Assembly: GCA_003554845.1 (NCBI GenBank) | Contig: PWHK01000019.1 | Span: 2,189-34,188, forward strand | Direction of reading: 5' to 3' | Origin: Candidatus Aenigmatarchaeota archaeon | Lineage (GTDB): Archaea > Aenigmatarchaeota > Aenigmatarchaeia > PWEA01 | Length of the DNA stretch: 32,000 bases | Part shown: positions 1 through 25,819 of the stretch, piece by piece | Position numbering within the stretch: position 1 is the stretch's first letter | How the letters are laid out: every line of letters starts with the position of its first letter | Notes under the pieces: model-generated | What the model was told of the DNA's origin: nothing | Databases searched by the model: none | The model's input: the letters and a program-made list of their open reading frames with translations, nothing else | Made by a program: the position numbers and the translations under genes

Positions 1-665
1 GAAACATAGTTGGTCCTCACTGTAGTGATGATGTTTGTGATATAGAAAGTCTCAATCCCGGTGTTATACACCAGTACCAAGTCGAGTTCCCTAGGGAAAT
101 ATTTGACGAAGATGCTTTAGAAGACATGAATCCCGGCGATCAGTTGAGGTACGGTATAGACGCGAGGTATGTGGTCGATACGAGCTCTCTGCTTGAGGTA
201 GAGATTATAGATAGCACTAGGTTTATGGAACTATCGGAGAGAGGTGACCTTGATTTCCATCAGCCTTTATCAAGATATGAATGGGGTCCTGTTGAGATAG
301 GAATGGCGGCCTCGCGGCAGCAGCCGATAAGAGGAGGCGAATCAATGCCGTTGATTCTTACGCTCAGGAACCAGGATGATGGTTGGGTGGAGTCTTTGAA
401 TAGTATAAGCATAGGGACATCAGAAGAAGGGTGGGTCGGGGGACTGGAAGACTGTGACTTCTCACAGAAGTACGAGGATAATTTTGACGATCTGGGATGG
501 GATGGACTTCAGCCCAAGGGAGATGAGCACGACAGCCTTACTATGAGCTGTACAATTGAAGTAGATGAACCAGAAGATATTACAGAGACAAAGGATCTGA
601 GAGTTGATATGAGCTACGAATACAGGATGGAAACCACGGACACAATAGAGGTCATGTATTCTTAA
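1..665 (+). CDS. Acidic secreted two-domain (CARDB-like) surface protein, paralog 0; 5' partial, frame open to the window edge
   Basis: The frame of ORF 126..665 has no stop back to nt 3 (NIVGPHCSDDVCDIESLNPG...). It shares the family motifs hxhxLRNxxDG (LILTLRNQDDGW), a Cys pair (EDCDFS...MSCTIE) and the C-terminal D-x-S-Y-E-Y motif with the next three genes. Stop codon is TAA. Confidence 0.75.
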   Translation, partial: NIVGPHCSDDVCDIESLNPGVIHQYQVEFPREIFDEDALEDMNPGDQLRYGIDARYVVDTSSLLEVEIIDSTRFMELSERGDLDFHQPLSRYEWGPVEIGMAASRQQPIRGGESMPLILTLRNQDDGWVESLNSISIGTSEEGWVGGLEDCDFSQKYEDNFDDLGWDGLQPKGDEHDSLTMSCTIEVDEPEDITETKDLRVDMSYEYRMETTDTIEVMYS

Positions 666-678
666 ACAGGCCCAAACA

Positions 679-686
679 TTTATATT
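679..686 (+). promoter_or_regulatory. Candidate TATA box (TTTATATT) for paralog 1
   Basis: AT-rich box 39 nt upstream of ATG 718. The same spacing class (31-39 nt from box to ATG) is seen at 2565, 9766 and 10822, implying very short or no leaders. Confidence 0.45.
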
Positions 687-717
687 ACAATAAAACCCAA
701 TGGTTGATAGTGGTTGT

Positions 718-1656
718 ATGAAAAGGATTGCAGTTGCTGTATTTCTAGTTTCAATGGTTGTATTTATATCTGGATGCGTTGAAGGCGGTGGTCTGGCAGG
801 TTTAATGGGAGTAGGCGACCAGGAAGTAGAAGATCCTGATGATGTTCTTGTAGTTGAAAATAGGATGGTAAATCCGTCTACAGTTAACGCCGAGAATCAG
901 TTCGAGTTCTCCTTCGAGTTGACCAATCTATTCGAAGCCGAGAGTGCTAGAGATGTTGAGGTGAGACTCTATGATTCTGGTATGTGTGATCCGATTCAGG
1001 GTGAGGATCCACAGGCAATGGACGGCCGGAACATATTTGAAGGTGCCACCAGGGTAATCGAGTGGAGTCTTCAGGCACCCACCAACACCGAACTTGGGAA
1101 TATGGCAGGTTCCTGTCCTTTAAAATACTATGTAAAATACAGGTTTGATGCATACAGTCGATCCGATGTTTATATTATGGGCGAAGACGTTTCCCGTGAT
1201 TCCGATGTTGCCAGTGTTTCACCTACAACAAGCAAGGCCAGAGGACCACTGAAAGTAGATATAGACTTTAGCGGGCAGCAGCCCTTCAGATACGGGAGTC
1301 CTGTTCCCTTCCAGATAAGATTACGAAATGCCGGTGATGGTGATCTAGACGACCTTAAACCTGATGATGTTAGTATTTTACTGGACCACGGTGAAACCGA
1401 AATACAGCTTGGAGAAGACAAATATCTTGCAGAAGACGATGACTGGGAAACAGGTTGCAGAAGTCCTGTTGATTTAGGTGATAAGTTCCAGTTCATAGAC
1501 GACAGAACACCGCCGATAAGCTGTAGACTGTATCCTGGCCATTACGAAGATTACTTTGAAGAACCATTGACAAGCTCCCAGATTAGAGTAAGTGTTGAGG
1601 ACTATGAGTATACTTTGGACGGCGAGGCTTCCGTTTCGATACAGCCTACTCTGTAG
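718..1656 (+). CDS. Acidic lipobox surface protein, paralog 1 (two CARDB-like domains)
   Basis: ORF 700..1656. ATG 718 gives MKRIAVAVFLVSMVVFISGC, a hydrophobic helix followed by an ISGC lipobox. It has two NxG(D) beta-sandwich-like motifs (FELTNLFEAES, IRLRNAGDGD), two Cys pairs and a C-terminal EDYEYTLDGE motif. Stop codon is TAG. Confidence 0.8.
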   Translation: MKRIAVAVFLVSMVVFISGCVEGGGLAGLMGVGDQEVEDPDDVLVVENRMVNPSTVNAENQFEFSFELTNLFEAESARDVEVRLYDSGMCDPIQGEDPQAMDGRNIFEGATRVIEWSLQAPTNTELGNMAGSCPLKYYVKYRFDAYSRSDVYIMGEDVSRDSDVASVSPTTSKARGPLKVDIDFSGQQPFRYGSPVPFQIRLRNAGDGDLDDLKPDDVSILLDHGETEIQLGEDKYLAEDDDWETGCRSPVDLGDKFQFIDDRTPPISCRLYPGHYEDYFEEPLTSSQIRVSVEDYEYTLDGEASVSIQPTL

Positions 1657-1663
1657 GGATAGC

Positions 1664-2545
1664 ATGAAAAATACTATAATCATGAGCATTTTCTTGGTAG
1701 TGTTGATTTCTGGATGCACAGGCTTTCCTGGTGTTGATCATACAGGGGCCGGTTTTCTTGGGTTCGGTGAGCCCGATTATACAGAACACGAGGAGATTTC
1801 CATCGATGTTGAAACCTTTCCTACGAGTGTACGCTCAGGTAGGAACATGGACGTTGTTTTTGATTTGGTAAACAGTGGAAATACTACACCAGAAAACATA
1901 CAACTTAGGATGGTAGATATTTGCTCTTTCCAGGGATTAACAGAACCCGATTCCGTTGACGATAAACTGGAGCCCGGTGATAAAACTATTTTGGATTTTG
2001 AATACCAGGCACCCGAGGTCAGTATGGGAAAGAGATGCGATATGAAATACAGGGTTTCATATGAGTCACTTGCCCACGCCACTTTCAGTGTCAATATAAT
2101 GGACGAAGATGAGTATATAACGAGGGAAAGAATGGGGAATCTTGCGGAAGAATCCAATGTACGCTACGAGAAAACACGTACTCCTGTGGAAATAGTTGCT
2201 GAAATTTCCCAAGAACAGCCTATTTTGGAGGGGGATGATTTTTTGGTCCACATCCACTTAGAAAACAAAGGAGACGGATTTGTCGTGGATAATGTAATAG
2301 AAGGCGGCGATGTAGAGATGTACTATCCAGATGATATTTTAGAGTTCGGAGGCTGTCAGGATATGGATACAGACGATAAACCTATAGTCTTTGAAGATAT
2401 GAGGTTTAGAAACGGGAGAACTCCGAGGGTCTCCTGTAGATTTTCAACAGACAGTGTTGATTTAGTAGAAACGGCTACTTTCCGTATGGACGTTGACTAT
2501 ACATACGTCAAAGACGGGTCGTTTTTTGTCAACATAGAGCCATAA
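1664..2545 (+). CDS. Acidic lipobox surface protein, paralog 2
   Basis: The in-frame ATG at 1664 gives MKNTIIMSIFLVVLISGC and lies 8 nt after the paralog 1 stop. The family motifs are present: FDLVNSGNTT, HLENKGDGF, KRCDMKYRVSYE, VSCRFS, DVDYTYVKDG. Confidence 0.8.
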   Translation: MKNTIIMSIFLVVLISGCTGFPGVDHTGAGFLGFGEPDYTEHEEISIDVETFPTSVRSGRNMDVVFDLVNSGNTTPENIQLRMVDICSFQGLTEPDSVDDKLEPGDKTILDFEYQAPEVSMGKRCDMKYRVSYESLAHATFSVNIMDEDEYITRERMGNLAEESNVRYEKTRTPVEIVAEISQEQPILEGDDFLVHIHLENKGDGFVVDNVIEGGDVEMYYPDDILEFGGCQDMDTDDKPIVFEDMRFRNGRTPRVSCRFSTDSVDLVETATFRMDVDYTYVKDGSFFVNIEP

Positions 2546-2564
2546 TGGAGCGATTAGGGTAAAG

Positions 2565-2572
2565 TTTATAAA
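2565..2572 (+). promoter_or_regulatory. Candidate TATA box (TTTATAAA) for paralog 3
   Basis: The box lies 37 nt upstream of ATG 2602 in a 56-nt intergenic gap. Confidence 0.45.
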
Positions 2573-2601
2573 TACTTGAGCAAAAGGTTATTTTAGGTAG
2601 C

Positions 2602-3492
2602 ATGGCAGCAAGAAGAAAAGAGATTTTTATCGTTTTAATTGCAGTATCCTTGGTATTTATTTCTGGATGTATTGAGTTTGGCGAGCAAGAGGAGGAAGTT
2701 GGATACGGAGTTGAGATAACTTCATTTGATGCAATACCACCCGAGGTTTTTTCTGGTGATTCCTTTGATCTACTTTTGGATGTCCGGAATATGGGCGACA
2801 GAACAGCCGATGATGTATGGGCTAATATAGAAAGATCTGGTGGAATAACCAATGTAGAGGGATTTGATGATGTGATGCCCTTGGATCCACCTACAGATGA
2901 ATTTCAGGGAGAGATGCATACATTTACTGCCAGTGCAAATGCTCCTCAGATATCTATAGGACCCGAAGACGTTAATGTAAGAGCAAGGGTTTACTACGAC
3001 TACAAAACAGATTCGAGGGTTCTTTTGCCGGTTATAGGAAAGGACGAATATGCCATGAGGCTTGAAGTTAACGATCCTATTCCTGAAATGGGTGTATCAA
3101 GGATGTCCCGTGGACCGATTTCTGTGGGAATAGATGGTCCTTCACCTGTACTTGTGGACGAAGATGATACAACCTTCAGATTTTACATAGAAGGTCGTAA
3201 TATAGGAGGTGGAGTTCCATACCTCACCGAGGCCCATGGTGATGTTCCCGACAGGGACCAGAGGAACAGGATAGGTGTAGACGTGAGCTTCCCCGAAGAT
3301 GCTCCTGTAAGCTGGGAAGACGAGGACTGCAGCGATGATGACGTAAGGGTTTATGGCGGTGATTTCCAGATAATCTGTAGAGGAGAGGTAGATGAACCCG
3401 TGGACTTTTTGGAAGTTCCTATTGATGTAACCCTAGACTACGGTTACTACGTAGACGGAGAAACCACCCTGACGGTTAAAGAAAGCATTTAA
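2602..3492 (+). CDS. Acidic lipobox surface protein, paralog 3 (possible Tat signal: AARRKEIF)
   Basis: N-terminus MAARRKEIFIVLIAVSLVFISGC. The family motifs are present: LDVRNMGDRTADD, IEGRNIGGG, DEDCSDD...IICRGE, TLDYGYYVDGE. Confidence 0.8.
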   Translation: MAARRKEIFIVLIAVSLVFISGCIEFGEQEEEVGYGVEITSFDAIPPEVFSGDSFDLLLDVRNMGDRTADDVWANIERSGGITNVEGFDDVMPLDPPTDEFQGEMHTFTASANAPQISIGPEDVNVRARVYYDYKTDSRVLLPVIGKDEYAMRLEVNDPIPEMGVSRMSRGPISVGIDGPSPVLVDEDDTTFRFYIEGRNIGGGVPYLTEAHGDVPDRDQRNRIGVDVSFPEDAPVSWEDEDCSDDDVRVYGGDFQIICRGEVDEPVDFLEVPIDVTLDYGYYVDGETTLTVKESI

Positions 3493-3526
3493 GGAAGTTT
3501 CATTTCTTGTTGGATATATAAAGTAG

Positions 3527-3602
3527 TGGTGGGTCCGCCCCGATTTGAACGGGGGACCTTCGCCATGTCAAGGCGACGTCATAACCACTAGACTACGGAC
3601 CC
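3527..3602 (-). tRNA. tRNA-Val (anticodon GAC), CCA encoded
   Basis: Reverse complement: GGGTCCG-TA-GTCTAGTGGTTATGAC-G-TCGCC-TTGACAT-GGCGA-AGGTC-CCCCG-TTCAAAT-CGGGG-CGGACCC-A-CCA. This gives a full cloverleaf. Confidence 0.93.
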
Positions 3603-4124
3603 ATTTCTGAAAAGTACGACGTAGCTCATCTCGTCGTCGGGATCTCCCACCAGTCCCTCCTTCAGTACCTCAAGATCGAACAACGATTTAACTTTATCCC
3701 CTTTCCTTTTAAAATTTCTTTCGTTGCAGTGGGTTGAAATTATTGCATGTCCACCCTCGGATAAGATTCTCTCTATTTCCCATGGCTTCTTTAGAAGATG
3801 AACTGTGTCGAAGGATAGAACTACATCGAAGCTGCTGTCTTTGAAAGGTATGTAGTCCCCTGACCCTACGACAAGGTCTATCCTGTCTGTGGCCATATCC
3901 ATCTTCTCTATATCAAGACCAACTGTATTTATATCGAACCCACTTTCAACAGCCTTTTTTTCAAACCATCCCTTTCCTATTCCTATATCTGCAATTTTGC
4001 TGTTTTCCAGGTCGATCTTTCCCCTGAGTGGAATTATGAAATCCAGGAGTATTTCCTTGTACTTCTTTTCCTGGGTTGACCTCATCCAGTCTGAATAGAT
4101 TTCACTGGTGAAATTTTCAGCCAT
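3588..4124 (-). CDS. Class I SAM-dependent methyltransferase
   Basis: Motif I-like ADIGIGKGWF and a post-I acidic residue pattern, plus FDVVLSFDTVHLL. 178 aa. The last 5 codons and the TAG stop lie inside tRNA-Val. Confidence 0.7.
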   Translation of the reverse strand: MAENFTSEIYSDWMRSTQEKKYKEILLDFIIPLRGKIDLENSKIADIGIGKGWFEKKAVESGFDINTVGLDIEKMDMATDRIDLVVGSGDYIPFKDSSFDVVLSFDTVHLLKKPWEIERILSEGGHAIISTHCNERNFKRKGDKVKSLFDLEVLKEGLVGDPDDEMSYVVLFRNGSVV

Positions 4125-4858: not shown

Positions 4859-4933
4859 TGGTGCGGTCGCCGGGATTTGAACCCGGGCTACGACCGTGGC
4901 AGGGTCGTGTCCTAGCCACTAGACCACGACCGC
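4859..4933 (-). tRNA. tRNA-Gly (anticodon GCC), CCA encoded
   Basis: Reverse complement: GCGGTCG-TG-GTCTAGTGGCTAGGAC-A-CGACC-CTGCCAC-GGTCG-TAGC-CCGGG-TTCAAAT-CCCGG-CGACCGC-A-CCA. Confidence 0.93.
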
Positions 4934-5632: not shown

Positions 5633-5671
5633 GCGAATCCCTTGTCTTTGTAGATTTAAAAGATTGGAAAA

Positions 5672-5874
5672 TGGCGCCGGCGGCAGGAGTTTCAGAAACC
5701 CCCCCTTTCTTTGAATGGGTTTTCTTTTGAACCTGCGTGGGCTTCATCGGAGGACGTGGTCAAAGACCACACCGGTCTTAAACGCCCAGTGGATGTTTCG
5801 CTTTCATCCTCGGGTGAGTCAACACATCCGCGGACTCGAATCCACCGCCTTTAGCCAGACTCGGCCACACCGGC
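5672..5874 (-). tRNA. tRNA-Ser (anticodon CGA) with three BHB introns (genomic 5795..5834, 5743..5778, 5689..5725); CCA encoded
   Basis: Exons: GCCGGTG-TG-GCCGAGTCTGGCTAAAGGC-G-GTGGA-TTCGAG^A-TCCAC-TGGGCGTTTA^GCCCAC-GCAGG-TTCAAA^T-CCTGC-CGCCGGC-G-CCA. Introns are 40, 36 and 37 nt. 203 nt minus 113 nt leaves a 90-nt class II tRNA with G73. Each splice site sits in a 3-nt bulge flanking a 4-bp helix. Confidence 0.85.
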
Positions 5875-5897: not shown

Positions 5898-5907
5898 TTA
5901 TAATAAT
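5898..5907 (-). promoter_or_regulatory. Candidate TATA box (ATTATTATAA on minus strand) for tRNA-Ser(CGA)
   Basis: The box is centred about 28 nt upstream of tRNA position 1 (5874). Confidence 0.45.
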
Positions 5908-6294
5908 TTAATCCCTGGTAATCATGAATATGTATCTCATGGGCATGAACTCCTCGACGTCGCCGTGGTATCCACAACCCTCACACATGAATCCAACCTG
6001 TATTTTTTCTTCGTCAAGGTTTTTTGCGTAGAGAGTCTTTAGATCACCATTACAGGCAGGACATTTTTCTGGTTTGTCAGACTCTGATTTTCTTGTTTCG
6101 ATAGTAACCTTTACATCAGGGACCTCTATGGCTATCCTTCTTGCTCTTTCCGGTGTTATATGGAAGGAACTGTCAACCTTTTCCAGCTCCTTCTGTACTA
6201 TGCTTCCCAGTTCCTGTTGGCTTCTTACGACGCCTGTTTCCTTCAATTTTTCTCTTATTATCCGACCCACAAGCTCAGAGTTCGGTATCTTCAT
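5908..6294 (-). CDS. Hypothetical protein with C-terminal CxxC...CxxC zinc ribbon
   Basis: ORF 5908..6321. ATG 6294 (MKIPNSELVGR...) limits the overlap with the ThiI-like gene to 20 nt. The zinc-ribbon cysteines are CPACNG...CEGCG. Confidence 0.55.
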   Translation of the reverse strand: MKIPNSELVGRIIREKLKETGVVRSQQELGSIVQKELEKVDSSFHITPERARRIAIEVPDVKVTIETRKSESDKPEKCPACNGDLKTLYAKNLDEEKIQVGFMCEGCGYHGDVEEFMPMRYIFMITRD

Positions 6295-11962: not shown

Positions 11963-12057
11963 TGGGCCCGACGGGATTTGAACCCGCGACTCCTAGGTTT
12001 CCCAAGACCATTTAGACCTTAAGAGCCTAGTGCTCTGCCAGACTGAGCTACGGGCCC
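11963..12057 (-). tRNA. tRNA-Lys (anticodon CUU) with a 21-nt intron at 37/38 (11999..12019)
   Basis: GGGCCCG-TA-GCTCAGTCTGGCAGAGC-A-CTAGG-CTCTTA^[21 nt]^A-CCTAG-GAGTC-GCGGG-TTCAAAT-CCCGT-CGGGCCC-A. CCA is not encoded. A CTTTATAATTT box lies about 30 nt upstream. Confidence 0.88.
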
Positions 12058-19822: not shown

Positions 19823-19966
19823 TGGGCCCGACGGGATTTGAACCCGCGACTACTGGGTTTCTTTCTTCATCCAGGACCTTGGTATCAGTTTTGTTTGTAA
19901 GGTCCATGTCGGAGCTTTTAACATAAGTTAAAAGCCCAGTGCTCTGCCAGACTGAGCTACAGGCCC
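19823..19966 (-). tRNA. tRNA-Lys (anticodon UUU) with a 70-nt intron at 37/38 (19859..19928)
   Basis: GGGCCTG-TA-GCTCAGTCTGGCAGAGC-A-CTGGG-CTTTTA^[70 nt]^A-CCCAG-TAGTC-GCGGG-TTCAAAT-CCCGT-CGGGCCC-A. The BHB core pairs CTTT (32-35) with AAAG at intron -6..-3, with 3-nt bulges on both sides. The intron contains an inner hairpin, GGACCTT...AAGGTCC. Confidence 0.9.
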
Positions 19967-20190: not shown

Positions 20191-20266
20191 TGGCGCCGCG
20201 ACCGGGATTTGAACCCGGGTCAGAGCCTCGACAGGGCTCTATGCTGAGCCACTACACCATCGCGGC
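20191..20266 (-). tRNA. tRNA-Asp (anticodon GUC), CCA encoded
   Basis: GCCGCGA-TG-GTGTAGTGGCTCAGCAT-A-GAGCC-CTGTCGA-GGCTC-TGAC-CCGGG-TTCAAAT-CCCGG-TCGCGGC-G-CCA. Confidence 0.93.
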
Positions 20267-20338: not shown

Positions 20339-20454
20339 GGCTGGCAGCGTCCTGGTGTTCACCTCTTTTCGAGGTTAAAGACCAATTCGCTGGAGGACTT
20401 TTCTTCCGTGTTCGGATGGGTACGGGAGTTGCCCCTCCGCTTTGGCCGCCAGCC
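20339..20454 (-). rRNA. rrf: 5S rRNA (stand-alone, not linked to 16S/23S in this window)
   Basis: The reverse complement contains the universal CCCGTACCCATCCGAACACGGAAG segment. The ends pair to form helix I: GGCTGGCGGC with GCTGCCAGCC. About 116 nt. Confidence 0.9.
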
Positions 20455-20513: not shown

Positions 20514-21920
20514 CTATATTCCTAATCTTACCTTGGATGATGACCTTTCGAAGGTTCTTCCGTCTACTGAACCCCTTGCTCTGGCCTCTGGGAATATAAG
20601 TTCGTCTATTGATTCCACAAGAACCTTTGCCTTGTAGTGTACTACCCTGTCATCCCCTGGTCCCATATCACCTAGCTTCCATCTGAGTACTGTGTCGTCG
20701 CCCTGTCTTATTATATTTGGCTTTACAGTGTCAAACTTGTCCAGTACCCTTGTTACGGAAGGAACAGAGTCCTCTATTATTACATTTTTTGCTTTTCCGA
20801 AGAGCCTGTTCTTTACGTGTAGGGATATGGTCAGTATTCTCTTGTCCTCGGATACCTCACTTTTAACTACTTCTTTTTTGATAACAGGCGCCTTCATATA
20901 GAGATATGCTCTGAATGTTATCAGGGCTATAAGTACTATGAGGATATAAAGAGGCCAGTAGTTTATCTCGTAGCTCATCTGTGTGGACTCACCCGGCTCA
21001 AGTTCTATGTTCCATATGTATGTTCTTGAAAGTCCATCCCTTCTGATTTCGACGTCTTCTGCAGTTACGAGCAAAGATATGGGAAATCCTATCCTTTCCT
21101 CTATGTTCTTTTCCTCTACGATGTTTCCTTTATTTTGTGCGTGTATTGTGTTGGTTCTTATAATATATCTTCCGTCGGAGGTCACCTCTGTCTGATAGTC
21201 TGCTATTTCAATTACTCCAAACGGTTCCTCACCCGACTTTATTGTGTGTCCTGCTCCCCGGACTTCGTAATTTATTTTGTAGTCCCCCGGAGTCTGGTAT
21301 TCCTGTAGATCAACAGACGCGCTGACCGTTTTACTTTTTCCTGTTTCCAGAATGAACTCTTCCAAGTGGGATCCCACCATCTCGCCTTCACCTGTAACCT
21401 CTATGTAGAATTCGCCGTCTTCGAAGTCCTTTGTTCCGTCGTTTTCGACTACAACAGAGGCCCTTACTTCTTCGTTTGGACCGTAGTCGACCTTTTCAAG
21501 TATAAAGTCTCTGAATACCATCGAGTAGTCCCTCAGAACTATAAAACAGAGATCAGATGACTCTGAAACCTCTCTGTAGTTTTCGGAGATTACAGAAAAT
21601 TGTGTTTTGTACTCGCCGAGTTCTATGTTTCTCGGTGCGTTTATGCTTATTTCTATGGTTCTTGTCTCGTCTGAATTTATCCTTAGTAGATTGTTAGAAA
21701 GAGAGAACCATGTAGAAAATTCCCGGGGAGTCCTGACACGGAATATGTCCCTTGAATCGTAGGTGTTGGTTATGTTTACCTCGTATGTGTGGGGAAGAAT
21801 AACACAAGATCCTTCTTCATCGTAGTCTATCTCTATATGTGCTATAGAAACAGGAGTTATACCTACGAATACAACAAGGACCATTAAAACAAGAAAAACC
21901 TTCTTCAAAACATTCACCAA
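20514..21920 (-). CDS. Membrane-anchored surface protein with CARDB/DUF11-like beta-sandwich domains
   Basis: The N-terminus has a signal-like helix (KKVFLVLMVLVVFVGITPVSIA). It also has a CARDB-type motif (ASVVVENDGTKDFEDGEFYIEV), one TM helix (WPLYILIVLIALITFRAYLY) and a C-terminal DUF11-like segment (VIIEDSVPS...VLRWKLGDMGPGDDRVVHYKAK). The start is TTG 21920 or GTG 21917. Stop codon is TAG. Confidence 0.7.
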   Translation of the reverse strand: MVNVLKKVFLVLMVLVVFVGITPVSIAHIEIDYDEEGSCVILPHTYEVNITNTYDSRDIFRVRTPREFSTWFSLSNNLLRINSDETRTIEISINAPRNIELGEYKTQFSVISENYREVSESSDLCFIVLRDYSMVFRDFILEKVDYGPNEEVRASVVVENDGTKDFEDGEFYIEVTGEGEMVGSHLEEFILETGKSKTVSASVDLQEYQTPGDYKINYEVRGAGHTIKSGEEPFGVIEIADYQTEVTSDGRYIIRTNTIHAQNKGNIVEEKNIEERIGFPISLLVTAEDVEIRRDGLSRTYIWNIELEPGESTQMSYEINYWPLYILIVLIALITFRAYLYMKAPVIKKEVVKSEVSEDKRILTISLHVKNRLFGKAKNVIIEDSVPSVTRVLDKFDTVKPNIIRQGDDTVLRWKLGDMGPGDDRVVHYKAKVLVESIDELIFPEARARGSVDGRTFERSSSKVRLGI

Positions 21921-22954: not shown

Positions 22955-23308
22955 TTAACCCTCTAGTATCCTTACGTTTTTTCCCTTTGGATTTTTGTCG
23001 AGGAGATCAAGTATGCTTATGGTTTCTCCGGCTTCGTTTATCTTTTGTTTTGCCTTTCCCGAGAAGCCAAATGCAGCGACAGTTATCTTCTTGTCGAGTG
23101 TACCGTATCCTGTTACCTTTCCTGGAACCAGAACAGTTTCGCCGTCCTCCGAATGCCTGTTTATCTTTGCAATGTTTACGGCTTTTTTGTTTCTTCGGCT
23201 CTTTTTCAATCTTTGTGCAACGTCTCCCCAGATCCCTATACCTTTCTTTCTGCACTTCTCTTCTGCTTTGCTTATTGTCTTTTTCAAGACTGGATTTGTT
23301 TTCTCCAT
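22955..23308 (-). CDS. rpl18e: 50S ribosomal protein L18e (eL18)
   Basis: ATG 23308 gives MEKTNPVLKKTISKAEEK...VLVPGKVTGYGTLDKKITVAAFGFSGKAKQKI. The longer 152-aa ORF would read through tRNA-Leu. Confidence 0.88.
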   Translation of the reverse strand: MEKTNPVLKKTISKAEEKCRKKGIGIWGDVAQRLKKSRRNKKAVNIAKINRHSEDGETVLVPGKVTGYGTLDKKITVAAFGFSGKAKQKINEAGETISILDLLDKNPKGKNVRILEG

Positions 23309-23332
23309 CTTGTCACCTTTTACTGGGCTTGA

Positions 23333-23483
23333 TGCGGGGGGCCGGATTCGAACCGACGAAGGCACTAAGCCACAGGATTTCTTATCATTGTGCCCGTATA
23401 TATCGGGACTCAAAACTTAAGCTTGAACTTAAGTCCTGCACCTTTAGTCGTATGTTTACCTTTGACCGCTTGGTTACCCCCGC
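23333..23483 (-). tRNA. tRNA-Leu (anticodon UAA) with two BHB introns: D-loop (23444..23461, 18 nt) and 37/38 (23379..23427, 49 nt)
   Basis: Exons: GCGGGGG-TA-ACCAAGCGGTCAA^AGGT-G-CAGGA-CTTAAG^A-TCCTG-TGGCTTAGTGCCTTC-GTCGG-TTCGAAT-CCGGC-CCCCCGC-A. 151 minus 67 leaves an 84-nt class II tRNA with A73. D-loop BHB: GGTC pairs with GACT, flanked by AAA bulges. Anticodon BHB: CTTA pairs with TAAG. Confidence 0.85.
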
Positions 23484-25135: not shown

Positions 25136-25603
25136 TTATTCACCCTTTCCTGACTTTTCCTTCTTTATCTTTGATGTCGAAACTCCAACCGAAGAGTCTC
25201 CTCTGAAGCTTGATTTGGTCTTCTGTCCCCTTACAGGAAGTCCGCGTCTATGTCGCAGTCCTCTGTAGTTACCGAGTTTCTTCATTGCTTCTATATCCTG
25301 CCTTATCTGCATCTCAAGGTTCGTCGATGTAAGCATTTTGTTATCTCCTGTTTCGGGATCCTTTCTCCTGTTGAGTAGATATGTAGGGATTTCGCCCTTT
25401 TCTATTACTTCCTCCAGAGTATTCTTTTCTTCTTTACTTATATCCCCTGCGAGCTTATCCGAATCTATTCCGGCCTTTTTCAGTATGGGTTTACTTGTCG
25501 AGAAGCTTATACCCTTTATACGTCTGATGCCTTCCCCTATTCTCGAATCACCGGGAATATCGGTCCCGAAAATTCTCAGTATGTTTTTTCTTCCTTCGGA
25601 CAT
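25136..25603 (-). CDS. rps13: 30S ribosomal protein S13 (uS13)
   Basis: ATG 25603 gives MSEGRKNILRIFGTDIPGDSRIGEGIRRIKGISFSTSK...GLRHRRGLPVRGQKTKS. The longer 185-aa ORF would read into tRNA-Ser(UGA). Confidence 0.92.
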   Translation of the reverse strand: MSEGRKNILRIFGTDIPGDSRIGEGIRRIKGISFSTSKPILKKAGIDSDKLAGDISKEEKNTLEEVIEKGEIPTYLLNRRKDPETGDNKMLTSTNLEMQIRQDIEAMKKLGNYRGLRHRRGLPVRGQKTKSSFRGDSSVGVSTSKIKKEKSGKGE

Positions 25604-25625
25604 ATTTTCACTTTTTCTTTTTGGT

Positions 25626-25819
25626 TGGCGCCGGGGGTGGGACTTCCAGTGGAACTGAAAGTATTGAACTTCGGTCCCATCTTTTGAACCCACGCGGGCT
25701 TCCGCAGATATCAGGTCTTACGCGACCCACCGGATCTCTCGAAAACCTGTCTTATCATCCTCTCGTCAACAGATCCGGTCTCAAGTCCGGCGCGTTGAAC
25801 CTGGCTTCGCTACCCCGGC
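25626..25819 (-). tRNA. tRNA-Ser (anticodon UGA) with three BHB introns (25736..25779, 25700..25719, 25643..25682); CCA encoded
   Basis: Exons: GCCGGGG-TA-GCGAAGCCAGGTTCAACGC-G-CCGGA-CTTGAG^A-TCCGG-TGGGTCGCGT^GCCCGC-GTGGG-TTCAAA^T-CCCAC-CCCCGGC-G-CCA. Introns are 44, 20 and 40 nt. 194 minus 104 leaves 90 nt, the same mature length and the same three intron positions as tRNA-Ser(CGA). Confidence 0.85.

Follow-up and report, generated by a model that had tools for sequence, protein, structure and literature searches.

How can a 203-nt stretch of archaeal DNA, which reads as a serine tRNA only when three insertions are taken out of it, serve as a tRNA gene? The locus lies on the minus strand of a 32,000-nt stretch (the window), and its host, one of the DPANN archaea, comes from the sediment of a hypersaline soda lake and is listed at NCBI as "Ca. 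Aenigmatarchaeota" and with relatives in GTDB's PWEA01; this DPANN affiliation leads us to reject a haloarchaeal origin. We argue here that the locus is probably a functional tRNA-Ser(CGA) gene, from whose transcript three introns of the bulge-helix-bulge (BHB) type are spliced out, and on the sequence evidence we assign this reading a probability of about 0.88.

The locus and its spliced product

The coordinates, the strand and the sequences of the locus agree with those of a preliminary description, and they are collected in Table 1. When the three segments of 40, 36 and 37 nt are deleted, the remaining 90 nt form a class II cloverleaf, which ARAGORN identifies as tRNA-Ser(cga); the product has G73, and its CCA is encoded. 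Given the unspliced 203 nt, ARAGORN makes no call, its intron mode included, and Rfam returns no match either at the gathering threshold or at E≤10. Misses by these two tools are uninformative where a tRNA gene carries multiple introns.

Five independent assemblies of this strain agree exactly in the sequence of the locus, and UCG codons occur in the genes of the window. Upstream of the mature 5' end stands a BRE/TATA-like element, which is kept as GGATTAAATT(A/C)TTATA(A/G), at equal distance, in six of six orthologous loci. By the architecture of archaeal promoters, we infer that this element is the promoter of the gene.

Table 1. Features of the tRNA-Ser(CGA) locus and of two further interrupted tRNA genes in the window. 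Positions are those of the window; a caret marks a predicted cut or junction.
Feature	Coordinates	Strand	Remarks
Promoter-like BRE/TATA element	5898..5914	-	GGATTAAATTATTATAA; 24-40 nt upstream of mature 5' end
tRNA-Ser(CGA) locus	5672..5874	-	203 nt
Exon 1	5835..5874	-	acceptor 5' strand, D arm, anticodon stem 5' strand, loop to G37 (anticodon CGA)
Intron 1	5795..5834	-	40 nt, canonical position 37/38; BHB core TTCG/CGAA
BHB1 central helix	5837..5840 with 5797..5800	-	TTCG (positions 32-35) pairs with CGAA
Intron 1 conserved core	5804..5829	-	exon-mimic GGATGTG 5823..5829; TTGA 5819..5822; variable mini-hairpin; GATGA 5804..5808
Exon 2	5779..5794	-	A38, anticodon stem 3' strand, variable-arm 5' strand and loop
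Intron 2	5743..5778	-	36 nt, variable-arm loop; BHB core CGTT/GATG
BHB2 central helix	5781..5784 with 5745..5748	-	CGTT pairs with GATG
Exon 3	5726..5742	-	variable-arm 3' strand, T stem 5' strand, T loop to position 59
Intron 3	5689..5725	-	37 nt, position 59/60 in T loop; BHB core TTCA/TGAA
BHB3 central helix	5728..5731 with 5691..5694	-	TTCA (positions 54-57) pairs with TGAA
Exon 4	5672..5688	-	T60, T stem 3' strand, acceptor 3' strand, G73, encoded CCA
TTTT run	5668..5671	-	adjoins CCA end; possible transcription stop; missing in some orthologues
Predicted exon 1/2 junction			GATTCGAG^ATCCAC; longer form GGATTCGAG^ATCCACTGGG
Predicted exon 2/3 junction			GCGTTTA^GCCCAC; longer form GGGCGTTTA^GCCCACGC; shifted register GTTTAA^AGCCC
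Predicted exon 3/4 junction			GGTTCAAA^TCCTGCC; longer form GCAGGTTCAAA^TCCTGCCG
tRNA-Ser(TGA)	25626..25819	-	three introns, 25736..25779, 25700..25719 and 25643..25682; ARAGORN tRNA-Ser(tga), spliced 90 nt
tRNA-Leu(TAA)	23333..23483	-	D-loop intron 23444..23461 and 37/38 intron 23379..23427; ARAGORN tRNA-Leu(taa), spliced 84 nt

Bulge-helix-bulge motifs at the three junctions

At each of the three insertions we recover the BHB core that had been proposed for it, that is, a 4-bp central helix flanked by two 3-nt bulges. The bulges of BHB1 are AG^T and AC^A, between an outer helix of 7 bp and an inner one of 1 bp; those of BHB2 are TA^A and AA^G, with 4 bp outside and 1 bp inside; and those of BHB3 are AA^A and AC^T, where the T stem provides 5 bp outside and the GAAA/TTTC helix, already described as following this core, provides 4 bp inside. 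The central helix of BHB2 consists of two Watson-Crick and two G.U pairs, a feature that the preliminary description did not stress, and intron 2 contains an internal 9-bp hairpin.

The strict hBHBh' form, in which each flanking helix has 2 bp or more, is found at intron 3 only. Introns 1 and 2 are relaxed rather than strict, because their inner helix is just 1 bp long, and relaxed BHB motifs in known systems need a splicing endonuclease (EndA) of broad specificity (PMC5829648). When the locus is shuffled, complete 4/4 cores whose outer helix has 4 bp or more and whose inner helix has 1 bp or more arise at 1.3e-4 of the (i,j) pairs; therefore, three such motifs at the very boundaries that restore a cloverleaf are not a product of chance.

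Conservation and covariation across species

Five further species carry a tRNA-Ser(CGA) gene after ThiI as well, with ThiI proteins 58-67% identical to that of the window. The exon lengths are 40/16/17/17 in all six species, while introns 1, 2 and 3 range over 36-40, 35-40 and 37-62 nt, respectively. Mean pairwise identity is 96% in the exons, exon 1 being near-invariant, and 81%, 55% and 43% in introns 1, 2 and 3; intron 1 is identical in one orthologue (L009). The BHB register is held in the five orthologues, with at least three of the four core pairs in each and with compensatory changes. A more distant relative (L020) has an intronless Ser(CGA) gene after ThiI, and the T arm rebuilt by our splicing, GCAGGTTCAAATCCTGC, is identical to the T arm of that gene. 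The proposal that the insertions are BHB introns is thus borne out by cores kept in six species, by diverged interiors, and by a spliced T arm that equals the intronless one.

We assess the pairing by a covariation analysis of seven sequences, in which 94% of the cells are paired overall. The central helices of BHB1, BHB2 and BHB3 are paired in 96%, 89% and 93% of cells, respectively. In BHB1, the Ser(TGA) paralogue has C-G in place of U-A at pair 32; BHB2 has double changes at two pairs, along with a terminal mismatch of the core in three of the six orthologues (L006, L007 and L174); and the first inner pair of intron 3 covaries between G-C and C-G among species. Helix 5 of the analysis is just 57% paired, and introns 1 and 2 are without a real inner helix. 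Double changes affect 13 pairs, many of them owing to one paralogue alone, versus 3.6±1.4 in shuffles (0 of 500 reach 13) and at most 2 in slid controls. Taken as a whole, the comparative sequence data leave, in our judgement, no doubt that the three motifs are more than a chance result.

We also scanned metagenomes for the pattern of a D arm together with an NGA anticodon loop. This pattern was too loose: 111 of the 120 matches listed are bacterial-type tRNA-Ser genes, whose acceptor stem begins with GGA, and among these listed matches are one new orthologue (L174) and two duplicates.

Sister genes and intron families

The window contains 10 introns in 9 tRNA genes, and three of the nine genes are missed by both ARAGORN and Rfam. 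The Ser(TGA) gene has introns homologous to those of Ser(CGA), at the matching three sites, with BHB cores CTTG/CGAG, TCGC/GCGG and TTCA/TGGA. It is kept with its introns in L205-L208, as is the Leu(TAA) gene; both occupy conserved slots in ribosomal operons, and in L210, a more distant relative, the equivalent slot holds an intronless Ser(TGA).

The relatives of intron 2 extend to other tRNA families. Searched with blastn-short, the introns return orthologues only; by global alignment against shuffles, intron 2 is related to the D-loop intron of a tRNA-Gly gene in L174 (z=7.4), and it is also related to D-loop introns of tRNA-Val. Sister species differ in whether they have these Gly and Val introns, and in six of six cases a 4/4 BHB core falls exactly at the boundary that the intronless orthologue forces. 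Intron families spread over several genes and positions, together with intronless distant relatives, indicate that introns were gained by spread within the lineage.

At the D-loop site of tRNA-Leu, a distant relative (L209) carries a BHB insertion of 786 nt that bears an open reading frame of 255 aa. This ORF-bearing insertion hints at a route of mobility at the DNA level. The frame has no match in Pfam and no sequence match in the PDB; the idea that it may encode a LAGLIDADG protein comes from motifs read by eye only.

Alternative readings of the locus

The evidence above bears on four other accounts of the locus. According to one of them the introns are the same, except that both cuts bounding the variable-loop intron fall one nucleotide further 3', giving a 92-nt tRNA. 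In this shifted register the outer helix is a full GGGC/GCCC, the core is GTTT/CGAT and the variable loop has 7 nt. L008 and four of the five Ser(TGA) genes have a 5-bp helix at the junction, so that a 4/4 core can be drawn in either register, and the 92-nt product of Ser(TGA) likewise passes ARAGORN. Our hand counts of complete 4/4 cores, however, are three of six Ser(CGA) and five of five Ser(TGA) genes in the original register, against one of six and four of five in the shifted one, and the original register leaves a 5-nt loop in both isoacceptors. We regard the shifted cut as unlikely.

A second account accepts only the insertions at 37/38 and 59/60 as introns, and has the 36-nt insertion stay in the tRNA as an exceptionally long, structured variable arm. 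Class II tRNAs do vary in the length of this arm, the insertion forms a stable hairpin, and its BHB core is the weakest among the three. But its BHB geometry is held in 11 genes, its interior diverges as that of an intron does (the 55% identity given above), and its Gly and Val homologues are BHB-bounded and missing from orthologues. Moreover, the variable arms of the intronless genes in L020 and L210 are ordinary. Thus we think it very unlikely that the segment is retained.

The rejection of the locus by standard tRNA finders could suggest a decaying pseudogene, full of insertions and yielding no functional tRNA. We reject this account as scarcely credible: the exons are conserved across six species against diverging insertions, all stems remain paired, with compensatory changes, the promoter element is conserved, and the sister genes Ser(TGA) and Leu(TAA) are interrupted likewise in their conserved operon slots. 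That the insertions are group I or group II introns, MITEs or assembly artefacts, as the want of any Rfam match in the region might allow, has in our view a negligible chance, for 36-40 nt is far too short for a self-splicing intron, no ribozyme matches in the region even at E≤10, five independent assemblies agree, and every boundary has BHB geometry.

Folding and the proposed splicing pathway

Folded unaided with RNAfold, the precursor does not recover the three BHBs. The enforced cloverleaf with all three motifs lies 12-15 kcal/mol above the minimum free energy fold, in which part of intron 1 pairs with the 3' strand of the anticodon stem; RNAalifold gives intron 1 a slightly different register, with no covariation. 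We count folding energy as evidence neither way.

Under our preferred reading, that of a gene with three BHB introns, transcription from the gene's own TATA-type promoter would yield a precursor of about 203 nt, in which the anticodon, variable and T arms would each be lengthened by one intron. Each pair of exon-intron junctions would fold into a bulge-helix-bulge, its two 3-nt bulges 4 bp apart, and the archaeal endonuclease EndA would presumably cut after the second nucleotide of each bulge. An RtcB-type ligase would then probably join the four exons into the 90-nt class II tRNA, and the three introns would be released, possibly as circles. The three BHBs can form and be cut independently, because they lie in separate arms; the order of the cuts, like the exact register of the cut in the variable loop, is conjectural. 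Pfam annotation of the window includes no splicing enzymes, and neither an EndA nor an RtcB gene was found within 226 kb of related loci, where tblastn with an approximate M. jannaschii EndA query, a weak probe, gave no match.

A guide-like layout in the canonical introns

The core of intron 1 is conserved to a degree that calls for separate comment. Its YTGA and GATGA elements are invariant in the six orthologues and, read by eye, the mini-hairpin between them has compensatory changes. A similar layout, resembling the D' and C' boxes of a guide RNA (K-loop-like), recurs in the 37/38 introns of Ser(TGA) and Leu(TAA): a segment complementary to the intron's own tRNA is followed by NUGA, by a variable hairpin, and by a GAUGA or AUGAUAA box. 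Counting five bases upstream from the D'-like box, we find by eye a base that pairs with U39 in 11 Ser genes and with U34 in 6 Leu genes. The guide-like duplexes, again by eye, span 6-10 bp, where about 9 bp or more would be expected of a guide, with one compensatory change, in the Ser(TGA) gene of L207. Each intron has a single D'-like box, YUGA or AUGA, and a single C'-like box, GAUGA or AUGAUAA, rather than two RUGAUGA/CUGA pairs. A regular expression for canonical C/D sRNAs, run over the related loci, finds no canonical match and one weak hit.

These features allow the tentative, and on present sequence data rather doubtful, suggestion that the 37/38 introns of Ser(CGA), Ser(UGA) and Leu(UAA) are minimal box C'/D'-like guide modules with a single K-loop. 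If this were true, they would direct 2'-O-methylation of U39 (Ser) or of the wobble U34 (Leu) in the host tRNA, before or after splicing, and they would bring to class II tRNAs a reduced, "half-mer" form of the system known from pre-tRNA-Trp introns. In a weaker form of the suggestion, the motif may only be a K-turn that binds L7Ae and aids the folding of a BHB without an inner helix. The complementarity between intron and exon could alternatively reflect duplicated exon sequence.

In the known system, the intron of pre-tRNA-Trp in Haloferax volcanii and Pyrococcus acts as a box C/D guide for Cm34 and Um39 (Clouet d'Orval 2001, Singh 2004; PMC7994747), and Pyrococcus guides target position 34 of tRNA-Leu(UAA) (PMC7994747). 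Our introns resemble it in their 37/38 site, a C-box-like GAUGA, a D-box-like YUGA, and a segment further upstream with complementarity to their own tRNA. They differ in having a single box pair instead of C/D plus C'/D', boxes that are off consensus, and the short duplexes noted above.

Relation to known multiple-intron tRNA genes

Triple-intron tRNAs had been said, in the preliminary description, to be documented mainly in Thermoproteales, and the literature agrees (PMC8450103, PMC4033280). In that order, tRNA genes with multiple introns are known from Pyrobaculum, Caldivirga and Thermofilum (Sugahara et al. 2007/2008; PMC4033280, PMC4090602, PMC8450103), and the average is 0.84 introns per tRNA gene (PMC8450103). 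Our genes resemble these in having up to three BHB introns each, relaxed BHB variants, a 37/38 intron combined with non-canonical sites that include 59/60 and the D loop (20/21), and a high overall intron load. They also resemble the transposing introns of Thermoproteales, in that related sequences occur in different tRNA genes and positions (Ser intron 2 and the Gly/Val D-loop introns) and close species differ in presence and absence (for the known system, PMC4033280, PMC4090602), although the phylum is a different one. The host, however, is a mesophilic, haloalkaliphilic DPANN archaeon and not a hyperthermophilic crenarchaeote; one intron lies inside the class II variable-arm loop, a site absent from the positions in PMC4090602 (45/46 and others); and the introns of the two Ser isoacceptors are homologous and occupy the same three sites.

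The same description called the gene unusual for its host, but the case is less anomalous than was implied, because DPANN archaea have already been tied to a raised level of tRNA gene disruption (PMC5829648). Broad-specificity endonucleases are known from DPANN, namely the epsilon2 EndA of ARMAN-2 (PMC3239211) and an alpha4 EndA with an L3 loop (PMC5829648), and the latter study explicitly predicts disrupted tRNA genes in DPANN that have yet to be identified. The present genes match that setting in their DPANN host, their multiple and non-canonical introns, their relaxed BHBs, and a tRNA set left incomplete by standard tools; they differ in belonging to an Aenigmatarchaeota/PWEA01-type lineage outside the genomes analysed there.

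Three-intron tRNA genes are known as well from a red alga, Cyanidioschyzon merolae (PMC3728597, PMC9602550). There, too, a single tRNA has three BHB-dependent introns, one each in its D, anticodon and T arms, but the genes are eukaryotic and nuclear, and both the enzyme complex and the intron positions are different.

Implications

A triple-intron gene is conserved among soda-lake relatives, so heavy fragmentation of tRNA genes extends to salt-loving DPANN archaea. Three introns per gene, non-canonical sites and shared intron families are not confined to the hyperthermophilic Thermoproteales, and the hidden tRNA genes of this window are of the kind predicted in PMC5829648. Three of its nine tRNA genes escape ARAGORN and Rfam; therefore, the tRNA counts of such metagenome-assembled genomes are underestimated, and it is these counts that feed estimates of completeness and quality as well as inferences of "missing" decoding capacity.

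The clade also provides a data set on intron gain, in which outgroups are intronless, sister species differ in the presence of introns, two isoacceptors share homologous introns, and a distant relative has an ORF-bearing intron at one shared site. Finally, the guide-like layout of the conserved canonical introns leads to a testable hypothesis about what tRNA introns may do.

Structure of the tRNA-Ser(CGA) gene

ARAGORN and Rfam report six tRNA genes and one 5S rRNA gene in the window, and neither matches the unspliced tRNA-Ser(CGA) locus (Rfam even at E<=10), which on the minus strand (5874..5672) reads GCCGGTGTGGCCGAGTCTGGCTAAAGGCGGTGGATTCGAG (40 nt) ATCCACTGGGCGTTTA (36 nt) GCCCACGCAGGTTCAAA (37 nt) TCCTGCCGCCGGCGCCA, with introns in parentheses. 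The preliminary description had proposed removing these three segments and using ARAGORN as a check: the program misses the locus as it stands, but calls the spliced 90-nt sequence tRNA-Ser(cga). In the product, the acceptor stem is 7 bp long, the D arm is of class II and the variable stem GGGC/GCCC carries a GTTTA loop; the T loop is TTCAAAT, and G73 and CCA are present.

Each boundary was scored against the canonical geometry of the bulge-helix-bulge (BHB) splice motif, that is, a 4-bp helix with a 3-nt bulge on either side, cut after the second base of each bulge. The canonical core that had been claimed is present at all three boundaries (Table), but the strict hBHBh' form, with flanking helices on both sides, occurs only in intron 3, introns 1 and 2 being relaxed. 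In shuffles of the locus, a fully paired core whose outer and inner helices reach at least 4 bp and 1 bp, respectively, arises at 1.3e-4 of position pairs. For the variable-loop intron, a register shifted by one base must also be considered. It gives a perfect core in 1/6 Ser(CGA) and 4/5 Ser(TGA) genes, as against 3/6 and 5/5 for the register first proposed, and is less favoured than the latter.

Folding the precursor had also been suggested as a check, but the BHBs do not emerge from nearest-neighbour folding, and the enforced cloverleaf with three BHBs lies 12-15 kcal/mol above the minimum free energy (MFE) in 6/6 species. Folding energy is uninformative as evidence on these motifs.

Conservation across species

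The gene occupies the same site downstream of ThiI in five other species (L006, L007, L008, L009 and L174, the last a metagenome contig). Exons measure 40, 16, 17 and 17 nt in all six genes, whereas introns 1, 2 and 3 range over 36-40, 35-40 and 37-62 nt; pairwise identity averages 96% across the exons, and 81%, 55% and 43% across the respective introns. Apart from single terminal core mismatches, the BHB register is held in every species, and a promoter-like element, GGATTAAATT(A/C)TTATA(A/G), lies 24-40 nt upstream in 6/6.

We assessed covariation of the cloverleaf, three cores and inner helices in a gap-free alignment, trimmed of intron interiors, of the six orthologues and the Ser(TGA) paralogue. 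Over the full structure, which was itself derived from these seven sequences, 94% of cells are paired. Thirteen pairs are changed on both sides, many of the double changes coming from the single paralogue, compared with 3.6+-1.4 in shuffles (0/500 reach 13) and no more than 2 in slid controls. In L020, an Aenigmatarchaeota MAG that is more distant, the corresponding slot holds a tRNA-Ser(CGA) gene without introns; its T arm, GCAGGTTCAAATCCTGC, is exactly that recreated by 59/60 splicing in the window gene. The data show the structure of the tRNA-Ser(CGA) gene, the geometry of its motifs, and the conservation of both.

Introns of the Gly and Val genes

The tRNA-Gly(GCC) and tRNA-Val(GAC) genes are intronless in the window, L008 and L009, and carry D-loop insertions in L006, L007 and L174, with a 37/38 insertion in one Val gene. 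The intronless orthologues set these boundaries without reference to any motif. In 6/6 cases the 4-bp core is paired throughout, with 3-nt bulges, at a forced boundary, against a chance rate of 2.6e-3 per position pair; this shows that tRNA-gene insertions in the clade are BHB introns. ARAGORN wrongly assigns the interrupted genes to Leu, Asp or Phe.

In L174, the D-loop intron of the Gly gene (33 nt) shares 27 identities with intron 2 of the window tRNA-Ser (z=7.4 against shuffles), and the two are clearly homologous. A single intron family is therefore present in different genes and at different positions, which points to the movement of introns from gene to gene. Such a family is described in Thermoproteales (Fujishima 2010, as summarized in PMC4090602).

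Other interrupted tRNA genes

A T-loop motif scan of the window pointed to two more genes that ARAGORN and Rfam do not report, tRNA-Ser(TGA) and tRNA-Leu(TAA), both in conserved ribosomal-protein/RNA-polymerase operon slots. The former is interrupted at the same three sites as Ser(CGA) and splices to an ARAGORN-positive tRNA of 90 nt; the latter splices to one of 84 nt, its D-loop intron having the core GGTC/GACT with flanking helices of only 1 bp. Both genes are likewise interrupted in four further species, found via RpoD homologues (56-72% identity), and in L210, a distant relative, the Ser(TGA) gene of this slot lacks introns. Compared site by site, the introns of the two Ser isoacceptors give z of about 3-4 (intron 1), up to 5.9 (intron 2) and up to 16 (intron 3); judged by these scores, those at corresponding sites are homologous. 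The window total is nine tRNA genes and ten introns.

Positions of interrupted tRNA genes and related features, with splice-motif details
Feature	Location	Strand	Details
Ser(CGA) intron 1 (37/38)			core TTCG/CGAA; outer helix 7 bp, inner 1 bp; terminal core mismatch in L006
Ser(CGA) intron 2 (variable loop)			core CGTT/GATG (two G.U pairs); outer helix 4 bp, inner 1 bp; terminal core mismatch in L006, L007, L174
Ser(CGA) intron 3 (59/60)			core TTCA/TGAA; outer helix 5 bp, inner 4 bp; terminal core mismatch in L006, L007
Hidden tRNA-Ser(TGA)	25626..25819	-	between Cbf5 and S13 genes
Ser(TGA) 37/38 intron	25736..25779	-	
Ser(TGA) variable-loop intron	25700..25719	-	
Ser(TGA) 59/60 intron	25643..25682	-	
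Hidden tRNA-Leu(TAA)	23333..23483	-	between RpoD and L18e
Leu(TAA) D-loop intron	23444..23461	-	18 nt
Leu(TAA) 37/38 intron	23379..23427	-	49 nt
37/38 introns with boxes	window 5804..5829, 25740..25775 (approx.), 23385..23420 (approx.)		NTGA ... (R)ATGA(A/T)A
5S rRNA	20339..20453	-	followed by tRNA-Asp
tRNA-Asp	20191..20266	-	followed by tRNA-Lys(TTT)
tRNA-Lys(TTT)	19823..19966	-	intron-bearing
Interrupted tRNA-Gly	L174:8666-8773, L006:13306-13417, L007:12496-12627		
Interrupted tRNA-Val	L006:14654-14781, L007:13869-13978, L174:10029-10125		
Intronless counterparts	window 4859..4933 and 3527..3602		

Long ORFs at 22955..23413 and 25136..25693 overlap the Leu(TAA) and Ser(TGA) genes at their 5' ends, and their true starts therefore lie further downstream. 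ARAGORN labels 11963..12057 (-) 'tRNA-Stop (tta)'. The Rfam alignment and the sequence give a CTCTTAA anticodon loop with an intron of about 23 nt after position 37, read by eye as a probable tRNA-Lys(CTT), and we reject a suppressor tRNA on this reading. There is no 23S or 16S gene near the window's 5S gene, which thus appears unlinked from other rRNA genes. Four consecutive very acidic ORFs (126..3492, +; pI 4.0-4.3) have no Pfam match, and a 468-aa ORF (20514..21920, -), kept beside RpoN in relatives, has only faint MG2/DUF11 matches; these may be secreted or surface proteins.

In another distant relative, the Aenigmarchaeota MAG JAGGXH010000009.1 (L209:3165-4110), tRNA-Leu(TAA) bears a 786-nt insertion (3189..3974) at the D-loop site also used by the window gene; its BHB has the core GGTC/GATT and an inner helix of 15 bp. 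The 255-aa ORF that it encloses matches nothing in Pfam or among PDB sequences and, by eye only, shows two LAGLIDADG-like motifs; the insertion may be a homing-endonuclease-bearing tRNA intron.

Layout of the 37/38 introns

Intron 1 is far more conserved than introns 2 and 3, being identical in two species whose ThiI proteins are just 67% identical. Within it, GGATGT, YTGA and GATGA are invariant, the latter two separated by a small hairpin whose pairing is kept through compensatory changes. Its layout, an exon-complementary stretch followed by NTGA, a variable hairpin and a box resembling RUGAUGA, recurs in Ser(TGA) and Leu(TAA), again in the 37/38 introns. The fifth base upstream of the D'-like box pairs with U39 in 11/11 Ser genes and U34 in 6/6 Leu genes, a spacing that would place these bases at the box C/D 'N+5' position. 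The complementary stretch tracks the anticodon stem, differing from one Ser isoacceptor to the other as the stem does. In one species, the last intron base and the guide-like stretch are linked by a compensatory change, and the RNAfold MFE also adopts the guide-like alternative pairing of intron 1.

This arrangement resembles that of the pre-tRNA-Trp intron, a guide for Cm34 and Um39 (PMC7994747), but comprises one box pair only. The duplexes, moreover, are 6-10 bp, and the exon likeness could stem from duplication instead. We consider it possible, but rather unlikely, that the 37/38 introns of Ser and Leu act as guides like the pre-tRNA-Trp intron. The 71-nt intron of tRNA-Lys(TTT) contains CTGA ... 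GGATGAAG and a 9-nt stretch complementary to the anticodon loop of that tRNA, but fits the guide-like spacing poorly.

Source organism

Contigs bearing the neighbouring HAD hydrolase were found in ENA, Logan and JGI sample 3300000557 (contig names SL_8KL_010_SED); the 203-nt locus is identical on all of them, one copy being truncated by the end of its contig. The nearest relatives of the adjacent ThiI (58-67% identical) are in Candidatus Aenigmatarchaeota MAGs with isolate names T1Sed10 and B1Sed10, which we take to be from a study of hypersaline soda-lake sediment. NCBI places the phylum within Nanobdellati, the DPANN kingdom. The PWEA01 MAG is among the relatives; PWEA01 has been described as a separate lineage near Nanohaloarchaeota (PMC9765267). 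To call the proteome halophile-like was fair, as the window's non-ribosomal proteins are acidic (pI about 4-5.5); a haloarchaeal host is ruled out, and the organism is a DPANN archaeon.

Discussion

By the established archaeal pathway (PMC4090602, PMC5829648), EndA would cut at each BHB and RtcB would join the exons. The relaxed form of motifs at non-canonical sites implies a presumably broad substrate range for the endonuclease, which in DPANN is tied to alpha4 enzymes with an L3 loop or to the epsilon2 type (PMC5829648). Neither EndA nor RtcB was found in the sequence covered: Pfam annotation showed no splicing enzyme in the window, and tblastn with an approximate M. jannaschii EndA query gave no match in 226 kb of related loci.

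Three-intron tRNAs are, as the preliminary description remarked, documented in Thermoproteales, together with 59/60 and D-loop sites, relaxed BHBs and intron families across genes (PMC4033280, PMC4090602, PMC8450103), and disrupted tRNA genes are known from some DPANN archaea (PMC3239211, PMC5829648). Our literature searches turned up no report of such genes in Aenigmatarchaeota or PWEA01-type genomes, and the intron sites given in the reviews consulted do not include the variable-arm loop of class II tRNAs. These genes carry practical weight for the annotation of MAGs, and the clade is useful for work on how introns are gained.
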